Below, in pieces: positions 539 to 13,600 of a DNA stretch of 18,975 bases. The stretch's first letter is position 1. Each line of letters opens with the position of its first letter. Source of the DNA: a virus (Duplodnaviria > Heunggongvirae > Uroviricota > Caudoviricetes); IMG/VR virus record IMGVR_UViG_2744054979_000005, one strand, 5' to 3'. A program made the translations under genes and the position numbers. Below the pieces are notes generated by a model. The model searched no databases and was not told the DNA's origin. It worked only from the letters and a program-made list of their open reading frames with translations.

Positions 539-996
539 GCAGAGTCGCCGCGATTATTTATGCTTTGGTTATCTGCATCATCGTCTGCCTGTCGTGGGCG
601 GTCAATCATTACCGTGATAACGCCATCGCCTACAAAGAACAGCGTGATAAAAAAGTCAGTGAGCTGAAGCAGTCGATCGCCACCATCGCTGACATGCAGC
701 AGCGTCAGCGTGATGTTGCTGCACTCGATGCAAAGTACTCGAGAGAATTAGCCAATGCGAAAGCTGAAAATGAAACTCTGCGCGCTGATGTTGCCGCTGG
801 TCGTCGTCGGTTGCACATCAAAGCAGTCTGTCAGTCAGTGCGTGAAGCCACCACCGCCTCCGGCGTGGATAATGCAACCAGCCCCCGACTGGCAGACACC
901 GCTGAACGGGATTATTTCACCCTCAGAGAGAGGCTGATCACTATGCAAAAACAACTGGAAGGAACCCAGAAGTATATTAATGAGCAGTGCAGATAG
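535..996 (+). CDS. Rz: i-spanin Rz (inner-membrane spanin subunit)
   Basis: GTG at 535 overlaps the R stop. Product [29 protein letters not shown]... has an N-terminal TM segment and is near-identical, from memory, to lambda Rz. Rz1 is embedded in the +1 frame. Confidence 0.9.
755..937 (+). CDS. Rz1: o-spanin Rz1 (outer-membrane lipoprotein spanin subunit), embedded in Rz
   Basis: 60-aa ORF lying entirely inside Rz in another frame. Signal peptide with lipobox LVVVGC and a PPPPP proline run. Near-identical, from memory, to lambda Rz1. Confidence 0.9.
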
Positions 997-1000
997 AGCT

Positions 1001-1016
1001 GCCCATATCGATGGGC
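1001..1016. terminator. hairpin between convergent Rz and bor 3' ends (possible bidirectional terminator)
   Basis: GCCCAT-ATCG-ATGGGC: 6-bp stem with 4-nt loop, placed exactly between the Rz stop (996) and bor stop (1028). No clean T-run follows, so terminator function is uncertain. Confidence 0.35.
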
Positions 1017-1027
1017 AACTCATGCAA

Positions 1028-1259
1028 TTATTGTGAGCAATACACACGCGCTTCCAGTGGAGTATAAATGCCTAAAGTAATAAAACCGAGAAATCCATTT
1101 ACGAATGTTTGCTGGGTTTCTGTTTTAACAACATTTTCTGCGCCGCCACAAATTTTGGCTGCATCAACAGTTTTCTCCTGTCCAATTCCCGAAACGAAGA
1201 AATGATGGGTGATGGTTTCCTTTGGTGTTACTGCTGTCGGTTTGTTTCCAACAGTAAAC
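1028..1259 (-). CDS. bor: Bor lipoprotein (serum-resistance moron), 5'-incomplete because of assembly gap
   Basis: Minus-strand frame ends ...GIYTPLEARVYCSQ*. Translated segment FTVGNKPTAVTPKETITHHFFVSGIGQEKTVDAAKICGGAENVVKTETQQTFVNGFLGFITLGIYTPLEARVYCSQ matches lambda Bor from about residue 22 to the end. The signal peptide/lipobox and start codon are missing: the frame runs into the N-run at 1260-1268, and sequence beyond it does not encode a Bor N-terminus. Confidence 0.85.
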
Positions 1260-1268
1260 NNNNNNNNN
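1260..1268. other. run of 9 N: unresolved or collapsed assembly gap inside bor
   Basis: Literal nnnnnnnnn in the sequence. At least about 63 nt of bor 5' coding sequence are absent, so the true gap is longer than 9 nt. Confidence 0.9.
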
Positions 1269-1382
1269 GATTGATGAAAATTAAAACTATATAGGTGGAT
1301 GCTCAGCCTATCGGAGGTAGTCAGGATTTGAATGTCAGTCTGTTGTCGGCATTCTGGCAATGCAATTTGGATAAAGCGGGGA

Positions 1383-1505
1383 TTAAAAAGATAGAGGCGA
1401 GCCGGTCAGGTAGAAATGAATCAGGCTCAAAGTGAAGCGGAAAAGGTCTGTGGCACAAGCTGATGCAGCCATAATTACAGCCTGATGATTTGTGGAATGA
1501 AACAT
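1383..1505 (-). CDS. hypothetical small protein (40 aa), unannotated in ORF track
   Basis: Minus-strand ATG (plus coordinates 1505-1503) preceded by AAGGAGG with a 6-nt spacer; stop TAA at 1385-1383. Manual translation: MFHSTNHQAVIMAASACATDLFRFTLSLIHFYLTGSPLSF. Hydrophobic, divergent from the HNH gene, same strand as bor. No homolog recognised. Confidence 0.35.
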   Translation of the reverse strand: MFHSTNHQAVIMAASACATDLFRFTLSLIHFYLTGSPLSF

Positions 1506-1585
1506 GTTGAACCTCCTTAATTGATGTTATTCGAGTGATGAAGGCATTCTGTCCTTCTATAGTGTCCAGTAAATCAAACAGGAAA

Positions 1586-1607
1586 CTTGTCCAACGTGTT
1601 GGACAAG
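1586..1607. repeat. perfect 10-bp inverted repeat CTTGTCCAAC-gt-GTTGGACAAG (candidate operator/protein-binding site)
   Basis: Read directly: arms 1586-1595 and 1598-1607 are exact reverse complements with a 2-nt spacer. It lies in the divergent intergenic region between the 40-aa minus ORF and the HNH gene. Confidence 0.6.
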
Positions 1608-1727
1608 CCTCTCCATTAGTGAGTTGTATTGATCACAACTCTACAAAGAATTCATTACTGGGTAGATGAAAATAGTTTCACTATGAATGGAGGAGGCTAT
1701 GTCGGTGGCTTCTTCATTGGAGTACAT

Positions 1728-2078
1728 ATGCCCCCACGAATCCCACGCGCCTGCCGTAAGCGTGGATGTGCAGGTACAACCACAGACAGTTCTGGTTACT
1801 GCGATAAACATCGTGGCGAAGGATGGGTACAGCATCAACGCGGACTGAGCCGCCACCAGCGTGGCTATGGCTCGAAATGGGATGCCATACGTGCGCGCAT
1901 ACTGAAGCGTGATAATCATCTGTGTCAGAACTGCCTGCGCAATGGGAGAGCCGTTGAAGCCAGAACTGTGGACCACATCATTCCGAAAGCTCATGGTGGC
2001 ACGGATGCAGACAGTAACCTGCAGAGTCTGTGCTGGCCCTGTCATAAAGCAAAAACAGCGCGCGAACGCATCAATTGA
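1728..2078 (+). CDS. HNH endonuclease, terminase-associated (HK97 gp74-like)
   Basis: ATG at 1728 preceded by GGAG (5-nt spacer). Product MPPRIPRACRKRGCAGTTTDSSGYCDKH...DHIIPKAHGGTDADSNLQSLCWPCHKAK has Cys pairs and an HNH (D-H...N...H) motif. Sits immediately upstream of the terminase genes, as in HK97-like phages. The track's longer ORF from 1629 is probably an upstream in-frame extension. Confidence 0.85.
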   Translation: MPPRIPRACRKRGCAGTTTDSSGYCDKHRGEGWVQHQRGLSRHQRGYGSKWDAIRARILKRDNHLCQNCLRNGRAVEARTVDHIIPKAHGGTDADSNLQSLCWPCHKAKTARERIN

Positions 2079-2225
2079 TAACAGTTCCCATCTGTAGGGG
2101 AGGGGCAGGCCAAATCTCTGCAACCCTGGCTGCTCAGTACCGCCGCCTGACCTTTCCTCGCATCGCCGCAGGTTCGAAAACTTTTTTTTGGAATGTGATT
2201 AAATGATTGATAGGTAAAACCGATT

Positions 2226-2708
2226 ATGTCTGGACCCCCGAAAACCCCGCCACGCCTGCATTTGATACGAGGCAACCCCTCAAAGCGGCCAGTTAAAGAC
2301 CTCAAAAAAACCGCTAAAAAGGATGAAAAAGGTCTCCCTAAAATTCCGCAACATTTAGGGGCGCAGGGGAAGTACTGGTTCAGGCGAATGGCGGAAGAGC
2401 TGAATGCGGAAGGGATCATTTCTCAGCTTGATGCGCGTGCGCTTGAGCTACTGGTGGAAGCCTATACCGAATACCGGCATCACTGCGAAACACTCGATGT
2501 TGAGGGGTACACCTACCGCTCGAAAACGCAGAACGGTGATGTGCTGATTAAGGCACACCCGGCTGCTGCGATGAAAGCGGATGCCTGGAAGCGGATCCGG
2601 GCGATGCTTGCAGAATTTGGTATGTCACCGGCAAGCCGGGCAAAAGTAAATACCGCCGGACCGGATAATGTTGATCCGCTGGCAGAGCTTTTAAAAGCGA
2701 GAGACTGA
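2226..2708 (+). CDS. terminase small subunit (P27-family-like)
   Basis: 160-aa ORF directly upstream of the large terminase with a 1-nt stop/start overlap (TGATG). Basic N-terminus (PKTPPRLHLIRGNPSKRPVKDLKK) typical of this small-terminase family. Confidence 0.8.
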   Translation: MSGPPKTPPRLHLIRGNPSKRPVKDLKKTAKKDEKGLPKIPQHLGAQGKYWFRRMAEELNAEGIISQLDARALELLVEAYTEYRHHCETLDVEGYTYRSKTQNGDVLIKAHPAAAMKADAWKRIRAMLAEFGMSPASRAKVNTAGPDNVDPLAELLKARD

Positions 2709-4465
2709 TGGCAAAAGTGGCTGACGGGATCCGCTACGCCGAACGTGTTGTTGCAGGAGAAATTGTTGCTGGCGAATTTGTCCGCCTGGCCTGCCAGCGT
2801 TTTCTTGATGATCTGAAGTACGGCGAAAAGCGGGGGATTTATTTCAGTGAACCCCGTGCGCAGCACATCCTGAATTTCTACAAATTTGTGCCTCATGTAA
2901 AAGGGGCACTGGCAGGCCAGCCCATTGAGTTGATGGACTGGCATGTATTTATCCTCATTAATATTTTTGGTTTTGTCATTCCGCTGGTCAATGAAGAAAC
3001 CGGGGAAGTTGTCATGCGCAGCGATGGCAGCGGACGTCCGGTGATGGTGCGCCGGTTCCGGACGGCGTACAACGAAGTCGCCCGTAAAAACGCAAAATCA
3101 ACCCTGTCATCGGGTATCGGCCTGTATATGACGGGGGCAGATAGTGAAGGCGGAGCTGAGGTGTATTCAGCCGCAACCACGCGTGACCAGGCCAGAATCG
3201 TGTTTGAAGACGCCAAAAATATGGTCAGAAAAGCCCGGTCGACACTCGGGCGGTTGTTTGATTTCAACAAGCTGGCGATTTACCAGGAGCAGAGCGCATC
3301 AAAATTTGAACCGCTTTCCTCGGATGCAAACAACCTGGACGGTCTGAACATCCACTGCGCCATTATTGATGAGCTGCATGCACATAAAACCCGCGACGTG
3401 TGGGACGTTCTGGAAACGGCAACCGGTGCCCGTCTGCAGTCCCTGTTATTTGGTATCACCACGGCTGGCTTTAACAAGGAAGGGATTTGTTACGAGCAGC
3501 GTGATTACGCCATCAAGGTATTGCGAGGCTATAACAGCGACGTGGAGGGCGCTGTAAAAGACGACTCTTACTTTGCGATCATTTACACGCTTGATGAGGG
3601 AGATGATCCGTTTGATGAAACGGTCTGGCAGAAAGCGAATCCTGGCCTGGGCATCTGTAAACGCTGGGATGATCTGCGTCGTCTGGCGAAAAAAGCGAAG
3701 GAGCAGGTCTCTGCGCGGGTGAATTTTTTTACCAAACACATGAATGTGTGGGTCACTGCCGAATCTGCCTGGATGGATATGATTAAGTGGGAGAAGTGCG
3801 AATACATTGCTCCACAACATGAGCTGAAAACATATCCCATGTGGGTCGGCGTCGACCTTGCTCATAAGATTGATATCTGTGCGGCGGCAAAACTCTGGCG
3901 AACCGATAACGGACATGTTCATGCTGATTTTAAATTCTGGCTTCCGGAAGGACGGCTGGAACGATGCTCGCGGCAGCAGGCAGAACTTTACCGGAAGTGG
4001 GCGGAGATGGATAAGCTCATCCTGACGGATGGTGATGTTATCGATCATGCTCAGATAAAAAGTGACTTACTGGAATGGATTGGCGGTGAAAACCTCAGGG
4101 AACTGGGATTTGACCCGTGGAGCGCAATGCAGTTCAGTCTGGCACTGGCTGAAGAAGGGATACCGCTGGTGGAGGTTCCGCAGACGGTCCGCAATCTGTC
4201 AGAGGCCATGAAGGAAACGGAATCACTGGTTTATGCCGGGCGTTTCCATCACAGCAATCATCCGGTCATGAACTGGATGATGTCTAACGTTACTGTAAAA
4301 CCGGACAAAAACGACAACATCTTCCCGAATAAATCCACGCCGGAAGCCAAAATCGACGGCCCTGTTGCGCTTTTTACAGCCATGAGCCGCTTTCTGGTAA
4401 ATGGCGGGGGCGTGAATGACTTTCTGTCCACGCTTGATCCTGATGAGGACCTGTTAATTCTGTGA
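2708..4465 (+). CDS. terminase large subunit (HK97-like)
   Basis: 585-aa ORF in the canonical position between small terminase and portal. Length and overall composition fit an HK97-type large terminase. Confidence 0.9.
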   Translation: MAKVADGIRYAERVVAGEIVAGEFVRLACQRFLDDLKYGEKRGIYFSEPRAQHILNFYKFVPHVKGALAGQPIELMDWHVFILINIFGFVIPLVNEETGEVVMRSDGSGRPVMVRRFRTAYNEVARKNAKSTLSSGIGLYMTGADSEGGAEVYSAATTRDQARIVFEDAKNMVRKARSTLGRLFDFNKLAIYQEQSASKFEPLSSDANNLDGLNIHCAIIDELHAHKTRDVWDVLETATGARLQSLLFGITTAGFNKEGICYEQRDYAIKVLRGYNSDVEGAVKDDSYFAIIYTLDEGDDPFDETVWQKANPGLGICKRWDDLRRLAKKAKEQVSARVNFFTKHMNVWVTAESAWMDMIKWEKCEYIAPQHELKTYPMWVGVDLAHKIDICAAAKLWRTDNGHVHADFKFWLPEGRLERCSRQQAELYRKWAEMDKLILTDGDVIDHAQIKSDLLEWIGGENLRELGFDPWSAMQFSLALAEEGIPLVEVPQTVRNLSEAMKETESLVYAGRFHHSNHPVMNWMMSNVTVKPDKNDNIFPNKSTPEAKIDGPVALFTAMSRFLVNGGGVNDFLSTLDPDEDLLIL

Positions 4466-4623
4466 AACAGCTTATTACTGATATGACCGGGCTGATCGGT
4501 TTCGGTCTGCTCACTGCTGGCGTTTATCTGTATGCAGGTCTGCCAGCGTCTCTGATGCTGTCTGGCTGTTTGTTGCTGCTTTATGCACTGGTGGTGTCCA
4601 TGAGGAGAAAACATGCTTCTTGA
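4462..4623 (+). CDS. hypothetical small membrane protein (about 53 aa, two predicted TM helices)
   Basis: ORF starting GTG 4462 (overlapping the TerL stop as GTGA) or ATG 4483, ending TGA 4621-4623. Translation VKQLITDMTGLIGFGLLTAGVYLYAGLPASLMLSGCLLLLYALVVSMRRKHAS: two hydrophobic stretches plus a basic tail. Its 3' end overlaps the portal RBS and start. No strong SD of its own. Confidence 0.4.
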   Translation: MKQLITDMTGLIGFGLLTAGVYLYAGLPASLMLSGCLLLLYALVVSMRRKHAS

Positions 4624-5839
4624 TGCTCTGTTTCGCAGTGAGCCTCTGGAAAATCCCTCGGTTCCGGTAACCGGAGAGGCCGCAGAGACGGATAATATTT
4701 TTGCCCGGGATGTGTATGTCAGTCCGGAAACGTCCATGAGGCTGGCTGCTGTCTATGCCTGTATTTATGTTATTTCATCCAGTGTGGCTCAGATGCCCCT
4801 GCATGTGATGCGAAAAACGAATGAGCATGTTCAGCCGGCACGCGATCACCCGTTGTTCTGGCTCGTTCATGATGAACCGAATGCCTGGCAGACCAGCTAT
4901 AAGTGGCGGGAACTGAAGCAGCGTCATGTGCTGGGGTGGGGCAATGGTTATACGTGGGTGAAACGTAATCGTCGTGGCGAGGTTACCAGTCTTGAATGCT
5001 GTATGCCATGGGAAACCACGTTACTTAACACCGGAGGGCGTCATACCTACGGTGTGTATAACGAAGAGGGTGCATTTGCGGTAAGTCCGGACGACATGAT
5101 CCATATCAGGGCGCTGGGAAACAATCAGAAAATGGGACTGAGTCCGATCATGCAGCATGCTGAAACCATTGGTATGGGAATGAGTGGTCAGCAGTATACC
5201 AGTGCTTTTTTTAACGGTAATGCCCGTCCTGCCGGGATTATTTCTGTGAAAAATGAACTGAACGAACAGAGTTGGAGCAGGCTCAAGAATATGTGGCAGC
5301 GGGCGGTGACAGCGCTTCGCAGCCAGGAAAATAAAACCATGTTGCTGCCTGCGCAACTGGATTACCGCGCTCTGACAGTTTCTCCGGTGGATGCTCAGAT
5401 CATTGATATGACCAAGCTGAACCGGTCGATGATTGCCGGGATTTTTAATGTCCCGGCGCACATGATTAATGACCTGGAAAAAGCCACATTTTCGAATATT
5501 ACGCAGCAGGCGATTCAGTTTGTTCGCTACACGATGATGCCCTGGGTTGCGAACTGGGAGCAGGAGCTTAACCGTCGCCTGTTTACCCGTACAGAACGGG
5601 CTGCCGGGTATTACGTTCGTTTCAACCTCACGGGGTTGCTCCGTGGGACCCCACAGGAGCGTGCGCAGTTCTATCACTTTGCCATTACAGATGGCTGGAT
5701 GAGTCGGAATGAAGCCAGGGCATTTGAGGATATGAACCCGGTTGACGGTCTGGATGAAATGCTGGTCAGCGTAAATGCAGCAAATCCGTTGAATAACTTT
5801 AAAGATACGAAAGGCAAAGAGGAAAAGAACGATGAATGA
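4613..5839 (+). CDS. portal protein (HK97 family)
   Basis: 408-aa ORF with AGGAG RBS 5 nt upstream. Position after the large terminase and before the prohead protease; sequence character typical of HK97-family portals. Confidence 0.9.
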   Translation: MLLDALFRSEPLENPSVPVTGEAAETDNIFARDVYVSPETSMRLAAVYACIYVISSSVAQMPLHVMRKTNEHVQPARDHPLFWLVHDEPNAWQTSYKWRELKQRHVLGWGNGYTWVKRNRRGEVTSLECCMPWETTLLNTGGRHTYGVYNEEGAFAVSPDDMIHIRALGNNQKMGLSPIMQHAETIGMGMSGQQYTSAFFNGNARPAGIISVKNELNEQSWSRLKNMWQRAVTALRSQENKTMLLPAQLDYRALTVSPVDAQIIDMTKLNRSMIAGIFNVPAHMINDLEKATFSNITQQAIQFVRYTMMPWVANWEQELNRRLFTRTERAAGYYVRFNLTGLLRGTPQERAQFYHFAITDGWMSRNEARAFEDMNPVDGLDEMLVSVNAANPLNNFKDTKGKEEKNDE

Positions 5840-10684: not shown

Positions 10685-13600
10685 ATGAGTGTGGCGACAT
10701 TACGTGAACTGATTATTAAAATCTCGGCAAATTCCCGGTCATTCCAGTCAGAGATCTCCCGGGCTTCGCGTATGGGGCAGGATTACTACCGTACCATGCA
10801 GAACGGAGGCCGGCAGTCCGCTGCTGCATCCCGTGAAATGCGGCGTGCACTGGCAGAAGTGACGGATCAGATAAATACAGCTAAATCTTCGGCACTGAAT
10901 ATGGCGGGGGCATTTGCCGGGGCTTTTGCTACCGGTCATCTTATTTCTTTCGCCGATGAGTGGAATTCAGTAAATGCCCGTCTGAAGCAGGCCTCACAGT
11001 CCAGTGATGATTTTCAGGCATCACAGCGTGAATTAATGGCGATCAGCCAGAGAACGGGGACGGCGTTTTCTGATAACGCCAGCCTTTTTGCCCGTTCTGC
11101 AGCTTCCATGCGGGAGTATGGTTACAGTTCTGAGGAGGTACTGAAAGTCACCGAGGCGATCTCCACGGGCCTGAAATTATCCGGTGCCAGTACAGCAGAA
11201 GCCAGTTCGGTGATCACGCAGTTCAGTCAGGCACTGGCGCAGGGAGTGCTGCGCGGTGAAGAGTTTAACTCGGTGAATGAGAACGGCGATCGTGTTATTC
11301 GTGCGCTGGCTGCGGGAGTGGGGGTTGCCCGTAAGGATCTGAAGGCCATGGCGGATAACGGAAAGTTGACCGCCGATAAGGTTGTTCCTGCACTGATTAG
11401 TCAGCTTGGGGCATTACGTGATGAATATGCGGCAATGCCTGATACGGTTTCATCCTCTGCAACCAAAGTTGAAAACGCCTTTATGGCCTGGGTTGGTGGT
11501 GCGAACGAGGCAAGCGGAGTGACGAAGACGCTCTCCGGTGTGCTGAATGGTATTGCAGGCAATATTGACACTGTGGCAACCGCTGCCGGTGCTCTGGTTG
11601 CCGTCGGGGTAGCCCGATATTTTGGCAATATGGCGTCTTCTGCTGGATCTGCAACTGCCGGATTAATTACTGCAGCCAGAAACGAAGTGGCTCTTGCGGA
11701 AGCGCAGCTCCGGGGGACACAGATAGCAACAGCCAGGGCGCGTGCGGCGGTTTATCGTGCGCAACAGGCGGTTGTTGCTGCTCGCGGTACCGAAAGGCAG
11801 GCAGCCGCAGAAGCGAAACTGGCTGCTGCCCAGGCATCACTTACCCGTAATATTGCGGCCAGAACAGCAGCACAGACAACGCTGAATACTGTCACGTCAG
11901 TGGGAAGTCGTCTGTTAAGTGGAGCACTGGGACTGGTTGGTGGGGTGCCGGGGCTTGTCATGCTGGGGGCCGCGGCCTGGTACACGATGTATCAGAATCA
12001 GGAGCAGGCCAGAGAATCTGCACGCCAGTATGCCGCAAAAATCGACGAAATTCGCCAGAAAACGTCGGCAATGTCGCTTCCTGAAGCGTCAGATAATGAG
12101 GAAAAGACGCGGCAGGCACTTGATGAGCAAAACAGGTTAATTGACGAGCAGAAAAGTAAGATTAAATCCTTACAGGAAAAAATTGCTGGCTATCAGTATG
12201 TGCTGGCAAACCCGGGCTGGACAACCGATAACGGTTTTATGATTAACCACATGACGTCGGTAAAAACAGTCACAGAAGGGCTTGCAGAAGCAACAAATCA
12301 ACTGGCAGTTGAACAGTCCCGTCTCACACAAATGCAGGGCAAAGCGCAATCCATTCAGGATGTGCTTGCCGGGCTGGAGGAGCGGCGGGTTGCGTTGATC
12401 CGTCAACAGGCGGCGGAACAAAACAAAGCGTATCAGTCCCTGTTGATCATGAATGGGCAGCATACCGAGTTTAATCGCCTTCTTGGGCTTGGTAATGAAT
12501 TACTTCAGCAGCGACAGGGGCTGGTGAATGTACCGTTACGGCTACCACAGGCAACCCTGGATGATAAACAGCAGACCGCACTGAATAACAGCAAGCGCGA
12601 ACTGGCTCTGTCCCGCCTTAAGGGGGAAGCGCGTGAGCGTGCCCGACTGGGCTATGCTGCGGATGATCTCGGCTTTGTGGGAGAGGCGTATCAGACAGCC
12701 AGACAGAATTATATCAATAACTCACTGGATGCCTGGCGAAATAACCAGGCAAATAAACCCAAAGCGCATAAAAAGACCGAAGCGGAAAAAACAGAAGATA
12801 TTTATAAACGGCTGATTAAACAGCAAAAAGAACAGATAGCACTGGCAGGGCAGAATACTGAACTGGCTAAGATGAAATATCAGGTCAGTCAGGGCGAATT
12901 ATCAACCCTGTCAGAAGCGCAGAAAAAAACGCTTTTGCAGAATGCAGCACTCATCGACCAGAAAAAGATTCGTGAGCAGCTTGCTGCGTATGAAAGCAGC
13001 CTGGCGGACAGTAATGCCAGTACCCGGGCGTCTAACGACGCGCAGTTACTGGGATATGGTGAAGGCTCACGGATGCGTGAACGACTCCAGGAAATGTGGA
13101 GTATCCGGCATGAGTTTGAGCAGAAAAATAACGAGCTGCTGAGACAGTATCAGGCCGGAGAAATTGAAGAAGCCCTGTGGAAACAGGAGAAAGAACTGAA
13201 TAAAAAATATCTGGAAGAGCGTCTCAGCGATCAGCAGGATTATTATGCAAAGGCCGATGCTTTACGTAATAACTGGAATGCAGGACTCCAGGAGGGGCTG
13301 ACCAACTGGGCAGACAGTGCCACCGATTATGCTTCGCAGGCGGCAGATGCTGTCGTTTCCACTATGGACGGGCTGGTATCAAATATTTCCGATGCGCTGG
13401 CCGGAAATGTTGTGGACTGGAGAAACTGGGGGAGTTCAATTCTCCAGGAAGTTTCAAAAATTCTGATGAATGCGGCCATTGTTAACGGACTGAAGTCACT
13501 CTCCGGTGCCGGAGGGTGGCTTGGTACGGTCGGCGGATGGATTTCGGGGGCGGTGGCAAACGCAAAAGGTGGTGTTTACACATCGGCAAATCTGAGTGCT

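Follow-up and report, generated by a model that had tools for sequence, protein, structure and literature searches.

The prophage SPbeta of Bacillus subtilis carries nonA, a gene for a small transmembrane protein that is made only because an infecting SP10 phage supplies its own sigma factors, and that then aborts the SP10 infection (PMC8270828). In this study, we analyzed a stretch of viral DNA of 18,975 nucleotides (Duplodnaviria; Heunggongvirae; Uroviricota; Caudoviricetes; IMG/VR record IMGVR_UViG_2744054979_000005), hereafter called the window, which belongs to the late region of a lambdoid/HK97-like prophage. On its minus strand, positions 1383–1631 appear to form a compact cassette of a temperate phage, which would be made up of a promoter of the T7 group, a stem-loop, a promoter of the SP6 group, a second stem-loop, a near-consensus ribosome-binding site, and a small open reading frame (ORF) of 40 codons. 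We lean toward the view that, from this prophage cassette, the polymerase of an invader expresses a small peptide, helical and hydrophobic, to the detriment of the infection. By analogy, nonA would be the closest documented parallel to the cassette, as both are prophage-borne genes for small proteins that are, or would be, switched on by the invader's own transcription factors (PMC8270828). The two differ in that the SP10 sigma-like pair works with the host core polymerase, whereas the cassette would be read by a complete single-subunit polymerase from copies of its own 23-bp promoters. In addition, the hosts of the cassette are Gram-negative, its peptide is unrelated in sequence, and its predicted tandem promoters are of different specificity.

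The late (class III) promoter-leader units of phages akin to T7 or SP6, such as that of T7 phi10 or of the capsid gene in K1E-like phages, share with the cassette the 23-bp promoter, the stem-loop at +1, the short leader, the AAGGAGG, and the ATG. In contrast, the cassette lies in a temperate phage without such a polymerase, and its cargo is a peptide of 40 amino acids (aa) without a homologue in Autographiviridae. Type I toxins (Hok, TisB, Ldr, Ibs, ShoB, and ZorO) are likewise helical hydrophobic peptides of 20–50 residues, which are often encoded by prophages and often missed by annotation. However, no antitoxin RNA, host promoter, or family match was found for the cassette, and its proposed control is promoter specificity instead of antisense RNA. 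The lambda morons bor and lom also lie in the late region, opposite to the late operon, and the cassette adjoins iss/bor; morons, however, come with a sigma-70 promoter and a terminator of their own and are active in the lysogen, and neither element was found for the small ORF. Chen and Schneider are reported to have described in 2006 tandem clusters of two to three T7-group promoters in enterobacterial islands without a matching polymerase gene. These islands were reportedly 4–13 kb long and integrase-bearing, with several phage-related genes driven by the promoters, and were read as satellite-like. That report is not known to mention a small peptide ORF or a position between the lysis and packaging modules of lambdoid or HK97-like prophages. 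We found no description of the cassette in the searchable full-text literature, which did not include the report of 2006.

The two promoter-like motifs, each of 23 bp, surfaced in an alignment of the regions upstream of the E. coli, Shigella, and Klebsiella copies of the small ORF, and both point at the ORF. The first site (CAATACAACTCACTAATGGAGAG, −17 to +6), of the T7 group and Berlinvirus type, occupies positions 1609–1631 on the minus strand, and its predicted start is G 1614, 109 nt before the ATG. The second site (ATTTACTGGACACTATAGAAGGA), of the SP6 group and K1E/Vectrevirus type, occupies positions 1552–1574 on the same strand, with a predicted start at G 1557, 52 nt before the ATG. 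This spacing is the same in all copies from E. coli or Shigella, where the first predicted start lies 109 nt (in one case 110 nt) and the second 52 nt ahead of the ATG. Counting mismatches to the textbook T7 consensus gave 15/23 for the first site, which is not significant by itself, and a pattern search that allowed three mismatches to the textbook consensus gave no match. These unconvincing counts were resolved because matrices from real phage genomes were used. The sites of the T7 and K11 matrices are annotated in genome records, and the S523 matrix was made from 10 promoter-like sites of Escherichia phage vB_EcoP_S523 (Berlinvirus, T7-like). With the latter, the first site (1631 to 1609) scored 31.8 bits, within the range of the sites of S523 itself (25.4–36.5 bits), and its first 19 nt are those of the S523 site at 33626. 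With the T7 matrix, it scored 22.4 bits, compared with 26.0–39.2 bits for the sites of T7 itself; because this is below the weakest T7 promoter, we regarded the site as Berlinvirus-type rather than T7-type. The second site (1574 to 1552) agrees at 23 of 23 positions with a promoter of Escherichia phage vB_EcoP_ACG-C91 (Vectrevirus, K1E/SP6-like), which lies at 13245 in that genome. With the ACG-C91 matrix, it reached 36.8 bits, or 35.6 bits after the identical site had been removed, and the sites of ACG-C91 itself scored 28.2–37.9 bits. Ten such sites are present in each of the ACG-C91 and S523 genomes, and every one of them is on the gene strand.

Apart from these two, no site of the window scored above 10.4 bits, and the maxima of shuffled windows were 13.5 and 18.3 bits. 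We also scanned both strands of 2.19 Mb of prophage DNA, which had been fetched without reference to the promoter pattern, and all sites of at least 24 bits with the T7, K11, S523, ACG-C91, and SP6 matrices lay inside the cassette. In IMG/VR, the 20-mer TTTACTGGACACTATAGAAG was present in several copies per K1E-like contig of 43–45 kb and once per prophage-like contig; similarly, the 17-mer ATACRACTCACTAATGG was present in several copies per contig of 38–40 kb and once per prophage-like contig. The two multi-copy contigs that were compared with GenBank turned out to be the Autographiviridae ACG-C91 and S523. Outside the cassette, the SP6-type word occurred only in Autographiviridae and as one AT-rich chance match in two contigs. 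These results indicate that the two predicted sites score like genuine promoters of named phages.

The small ORF runs on the minus strand from 1505 to 1383, from ATG to TAA, and comprises 40 codons including the stop. Its product, MFHSTNHQAVIMAASACATDLFRFTLSLIHFYLTGSPLSF, is exactly the one that the original prediction had written for a 40-aa minus-strand ORF at this place. The Shine–Dalgarno sequence AAGGAGG named in that prediction was also recovered, at 1512–1518 on the minus strand (1518 to 1512), 6 nt before the ATG, and it is the only copy on either strand of the whole window. The chance expectation for AAGGAGG followed after six nucleotides by ATG is 0.05, and the pattern was seen in 10 of 200 shuffles. 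This unit is invariant in the E. coli and Shigella copies except for a few damaged or variant ones, and in the Klebsiella copies an AAAGGAG or AAGGAGG lies as far from the ATG as the E. coli sequence does.

Copies of the cassette were collected from annotated genomes, IMG/VR, and protein-linked contigs, which gave 117 copies, 67 of them distinct. The original prediction had made its case depend on the conservation of the reading frame in homologous prophages, and the frame was kept there, with the ORF intact in 65 of the 67 distinct sequences. Its second proposal, an analysis of synonymous substitutions, was borne out for one half of the ORF only. Codons 21–40 (LFRFTLSLIHFYLTGSPLSF) are conserved as protein: among the E. 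coli types, the proportion of nonsynonymous differences (pN) was 0 and that of synonymous differences (pS) was 0.13–0.19, and over the last 16 codons, between E. coli and Klebsiella, pN was 0.057 and pS 0.31–0.40, both of which indicate purifying selection. Six sites vary in codons 21–40 of the E. coli types, namely five synonymous third positions and one rare P37L, and the stop codon alternates between TAA and TGA. A more distant Klebsiella form of the conserved half shows conservative replacements (ILSVAHYFLTGSPLSF). Codons 1–20 are hypervariable, and in codons 2–20 (pN = 0.32, pS = 0.15–0.22) no purifying selection was seen. E. coli has two alleles of codons 2–20, MFHSTNHQAVIMAASACATD and M[LF]RSKSQLTVIITTSPYAED, and recombination shuffles them separately from the sequence upstream.

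The 3' end of the small ORF lies antisense to a remnant of a LysC-type o-spanin gene. This 5'-truncated remnant occupies positions 1316–1435 on the plus strand, and its last 53 nt overlap the ORF; window positions 1295–1435 (plus) matched positions 40–68 of Pfam PF23793, and the full-length LysC of Shigella phage SfIV and that of locus L150 matched positions 2–68. In SfIV-type phages, lysC is complete, and the end of the SfIV coding sequence is homologous to window position 1435. In the window and in Klebsiella phages, lysC is a truncated remnant. Two of the latter, MK448231 and MK714353, have it in their records as "Rz1 lytic protein"; the remnant of MK448231 (locus L373, 2568–2744, minus strand) has no lipobox, and the real Rz1 of this phage is embedded in Rz. 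The third positions of the small ORF are the second positions of the lysC frame, and the observed changes would alter LysC and spare the peptide, so the conservation belongs to the minus-strand ORF. Conservation of the 3' half by way of lysC was ruled out by this codon-position analysis and by the truncation of lysC in most contexts. We believe that the small ORF is a genuine and conserved small gene that is, as predicted from its start signals, translatable.

Each predicted transcript would begin with a stem-loop. The first stem-loop (1582–1611, minus strand) covers +4 to +33 of the transcript from 1614 and has a stem of 10–13 bp, in which the core 1608–1599 pairs with 1594–1585 around the loop CACG. 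Across 14 distinct homologues, 90% of the cells were paired, compared with 28–38% when the partner was slid. Compensatory changes were seen at two pairs (C-G/A-U to U-A/C-G), and the wobble pairs (G-U) can form in the RNA of the minus strand only. The same element came first in the minimum-energy and centroid folds. It was flagged by a scan for terminator-like hairpins and, with a U-rich stretch behind it on the minus strand, also looks like a stop signal for host polymerase that comes in from farther upstream. The view that this element is simply a terminator or an operator was considered and is disfavored by the covariation, the G-U wobbles, and the position in the 5' leader. The second stem-loop (GAAGG-ACAGAAUG-CCUUC, 5 bp; 1540–1557, minus strand) starts at +1 of the second predicted transcript and was also seen in the minimum-energy and centroid folds. 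The capsid-gene leaders of K1E-like phages have the matching order of promoter, +1 stem-loop, and AAGGAGG. In its predicted arrangement of a promoter, a stem-loop from about +1, and AAGGAGG, the cassette resembles the late-gene leaders of the cognate phages.

The promoters were not the same in all related prophages. In the SfIV-type copies, the first site (CAATACGACTCACTAATGGGGAG) scored 34.7 bits with the S523 matrix, and the second site (ATTTAGGTGACACTTTAGAAGGA) scored 32.3 bits with the SP6 matrix, where the sites of SP6 itself scored 29.9–36.3 bits. Some Klebsiella copies have AATTAGGGCCCACTATAGAGACC, which scored 28.8 bits with the K11 matrix and is identical at 20 of 23 positions to the annotated K11 promoter phi1.05, and other Klebsiella copies have TAATGCGACTCACTATAGAGAGA, which agrees with the T7 consensus at 21 of 23 positions. 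At −12 to −8, where polymerase specificity is read, the variants CTGGA and ATGGA (both K1E-like) and GGTGA (SP6-like) were found. The predicted promoter alleles thus vary between prophages and match different phage genera and host genera. In the Klebsiella copies (L154–L159, MK448231), a second promoter-like site, such as TAATAGTGGCGAGTATAGAAC or TAATAGTGGCCAGTATAGAAGGG, lies about 60 nt downstream of the first, in the place where the SP6-type promoter stands in E. coli; no multi-copy counterpart of this second site (AGTGGCGWGTATAGAAC) was found in IMG/VR, and we make no promoter claim for it. In E. coli L1PEag1 (NZ_CP145513, reverse strand, 1500–2050), the promoter module and a 5' fragment of the HNH gene are tandemly duplicated, and four phage-type promoters precede one intact ORF, with the ribosome-binding site and start codon of the upstream copy dead.

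The peptide behind the promoters also differs. In some Klebsiella prophages, the same slot is filled by an unrelated hydrophobic peptide of 38 aa (MSHIEIIHLIDSYVLLATHIISLIIVCRKLIADLSRRS), whose relatives are 50–87% identical. This family (MSH[IL]E..., end LIADLSRR[SF]) was found in MK448231, MK714353, and loci L352 and L356, behind the same kind of promoters and leader and with its own AAGGAGG. We believe that the predicted peptide cargo of the cassette is replaceable.

AlphaFold2, supplied with 15 homologues, predicted a single helix over residues 2–34 of the window peptide with a predicted local distance difference test (pLDDT) score of 81, and the tail GSPLSF was non-helical. The Klebsiella homologue has a hydrophobic stretch of membrane length, ITFAVIYFLLSLIHF, with a mean Kyte–Doolittle hydropathy of 2.22. 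Because of the predicted helix, this hydrophobic stretch of the Klebsiella form, and the second hydrophobic peptide of 38 aa in the same slot, a small membrane peptide or toxin, as suggested in the original prediction, is still the most plausible kind of product under these models. The Klebsiella peptide gave one PHROG match at noise level (E = 0.019), and a tblastn search of the peptide against Autographiviridae genomes gave no match.

We searched for signals by which the host could express the gene. A strict sigma-70 scan, which also missed any iss promoter, found no promoter in the window (950–2300), the EC958 locus (2550–3500), or the SfIV locus (2000–3000). No terminator was found after the small ORF, and the only terminator-like hairpin lies upstream of it. 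With Rfam (window 900–2400, E ≤ 1), there was no match at the ORF and only two noise hits elsewhere. No promoter was found on the opposite strand, which belongs to the late operon. Because there is no recognizable host promoter and there are two phage-type promoters, the small ORF is probably silent in the lysogen and expressed only on infection by a T7-like or SP6-like phage.

The simplest reading, and the one we prefer, is that the host polymerase, without a recognizable promoter, would leave the small ORF silent in the lysogen. An infecting lytic phage of the Autographiviridae (Berlinvirus/T7-like or K1E/SP6-like) would make its own single-subunit RNA polymerase, which would recognize the promoter copies in the chromosome as its own and begin transcripts of the gene at 1614 or 1557. 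Owing to the strong ribosome-binding site, a helical hydrophobic peptide of about 40 residues would then be made in a burst, and this peptide would damage the cell or block phage development early enough to cut the yield of the invader. Its role would be that of abortive infection, with damage to the membrane, or of a specific block, and such abortive infection or exclusion would protect the clonal kin of the prophage. We infer the use of the sites in vivo, the production of the peptide, and its effect from the sequences. More tentatively, and just short of calling it probable, we regarded the cassette as a "Trojan promoter" defense, in which temperate phages of E. coli, Shigella, and Klebsiella have the promoters of locally circulating T7-like and SP6-like lytic phages wired to a toxic or inhibitory peptide and the invader's polymerase acts as the trigger; the promoter alleles (Berlinvirus, K1E, SP6, K11, and T7), the duplications, and the two cargos would be traces of an arms race with Autographiviridae. 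Evasion of counter-measures by the phage may lie behind the hypervariability of the N-terminal half.

Several observations weigh against an invader-triggered toxic peptide. The window peptide is moderately hydrophobic, with a grand average of hydropathy (GRAVY) of 0.67; its best 15-residue stretch reaches 1.35 on the Kyte–Doolittle scale and is broken by D20 and R23, which lie midway along the helix. Because of this moderate hydrophobicity and these two residues, the insertion of the modeled E. coli peptide into a membrane is not assured. An invariant tail of 15 residues, as seen here, would be expected of a peptide with a specific binding partner more than of a generic membrane toxin. The E. 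coli peptide had no match in Pfam, PHROGs, NCBIfam, PADLOC, or the PDB sequences, and its codons 2–20 show no purifying selection. As for the promoters, the sites behind the S523, ACG-C91, and SP6 matrices were chosen by similarity and are not mapped starts, and T7 itself may not use the site at 1631 to 1609, which is below its weakest promoter. T7-like phages degrade host DNA, which limits the time for expression. Moreover, the sigma-70 scan is insensitive, flagging no iss promoter either, and this also serves the view that the host reads the gene.

On that view, the ORF is a moron expressed in the lysogen, as the original prediction had it, or a type I toxin, transcribed by the host polymerase from an unrecognized promoter, and the phage-type sites are irrelevant. 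The position is classic for a moron, adjoining iss/bor; the ORF does lie on the same strand as bor, as had been stated; and a short peptide, hydrophobic and helical, behind a strong ribosome-binding site would suit either kind of gene. However, no sigma-70-like site was found in the three contexts, where two predicted promoters for phage polymerase stand instead; the terminator-like hairpin lies upstream on the same strand; and neither an antisense RNA family nor any Rfam match was found. Expression by the host would also leave unexplained why the phage-type sites keep a fixed distance and why they switch to K11 and T7 types in Klebsiella. The moron of the original prediction was not supported, and we consider this explanation, in either form, quite unlikely. 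A little less unlikely, although still improbable in our opinion, is that the invader's polymerase uses the promoters and that the selected product is the transcript, by read-through into iss/bor, antisense RNA across the lysis genes, or satellite-like exploitation. The lack of a terminator after the ORF speaks for this, as a processive phage polymerase would run into iss here and antisense into the lysis genes of SfIV-type phages, and so does the satellite-like reading reported for tandem T7-like promoters in enterobacterial islands. However, the ribosome-binding site, the ATG, and a small ORF are constant across contexts in which the downstream neighbor is iss (here), lysC (SfIV), or another gene (Klebsiella). 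The synonymous substitutions in the 3' half of the ORF point to a protein product, and some cassettes swap in a different small ORF with its own AAGGAGG.

The cassette might also be a functionless relic, that is, a captured promoter and leader of a lytic phage with a chance antisense ORF whose conservation is due to lysC. The 3' end of the ORF is indeed antisense to the 3' end of lysC, which is intact in SfIV-type phages, and the N-terminal half evolves like unconstrained sequence. However, the differences in the shared block fall on third positions of the ORF and would change LysC, and the block is kept in the window and in the Klebsiella phages though lysC is truncated there, down to the MK448231 remnant without a lipobox. 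The promoters keep scores in the functional range across diverged copies and are swapped for other specificities, the peptide has no tblastn match in Autographiviridae genomes, and 633 of 5,426 complete E. coli genomes contain the cassette. A relic is, in our judgment, very improbable. All three explanations were ranked below a peptide expressed by the polymerase of the invader.

The 301 bp around the small ORF were nearly full length in 626 of these 633 genomes, and the sequence of the region is identical in the sequence type 131 (ST131) strains EC958 and JJ1886. The original prediction had called the ORF unannotated, and this was correct for RefSeq/PGAP, which has no annotation at the locus in E. 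coli genomes. It was not correct for GenBank, where ON470612 has the ORF as a hypothetical protein and ON470600, ON470607, and ON470621 have it as "protein of unknown function DUF4347". This last label looks spurious, as Pfam gave no match for the peptide. The copy of Shigella phage SfIV is approximately 85% identical and is placed between the lysis genes and HNH. Homology searches found no homologues outside E. coli, Shigella, and Klebsiella.

In the window, the small ORF lies between iss/bor on the minus strand (1028 to about 1320) and the HNH endonuclease gene on the plus strand (1728–2078). On the side of iss/bor are the genes for lysozyme (5–538) and Rz (520–996), with Rz1 embedded in Rz at 755–937; beyond the HNH gene are those for the P27-family small terminase (2226–2708) and the large terminase (2708–4465). 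Where the window has a run of nine N (1260–1268), the EC958 locus, identical in all other respects, has approximately 128 nt (2873–3000). The run hides the start of iss/bor together with adjoining upstream sequence, which is why iss appears truncated in the window. Most prophages with an HNH protein that is 97–99% identical have a different upstream region, and the cassette is therefore a separate mosaic module. The first approximately 150 nt of the HNH gene (a pseudogene in PGAP) travel with the cassette in three E. coli prophages (L146, L147, and L153), which have other terminase types and do not use the HNH/P27 terminase module. This HNH stub in phages without the module suggests that the cassette first stood between lysC and HNH and was later spread by recombination, which took stubs of both neighbors along. 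The cassette-bearing Klebsiella prophages also have clusters of two to four tRNA genes between the antiterminator Q and the holin genes, for example at 4571–4887 in the MK448231 locus (L373) and at 4670–4915 in the MK714353 locus (L374), for Arg, Thr, Phe, and Asn and for Ser and Asn, respectively.

If our reading is true, the cassette would be a defense without a sensor protein, in which recognition is left to the invader's polymerase and specificity resides in 23 bp that can be swapped or duplicated. It is only approximately 250 bp long and is missed by standard annotation, and it is carried by approximately 12% of complete E. coli genomes and by many prophages of Klebsiella pneumoniae. The cassette supplies two candidate small-peptide effectors that are directly testable, and it suggests a rule for searching, namely to look for the promoters of virulent phages inside prophages and islands. 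The presumed targets of such a defense (K1E/K1-5-like, SP6-like, T7-like, and K11-like phages) are among the phages most used in therapy against encapsulated E. coli and Klebsiella, and the cassette could account for gaps in phage host range that have not been explained.

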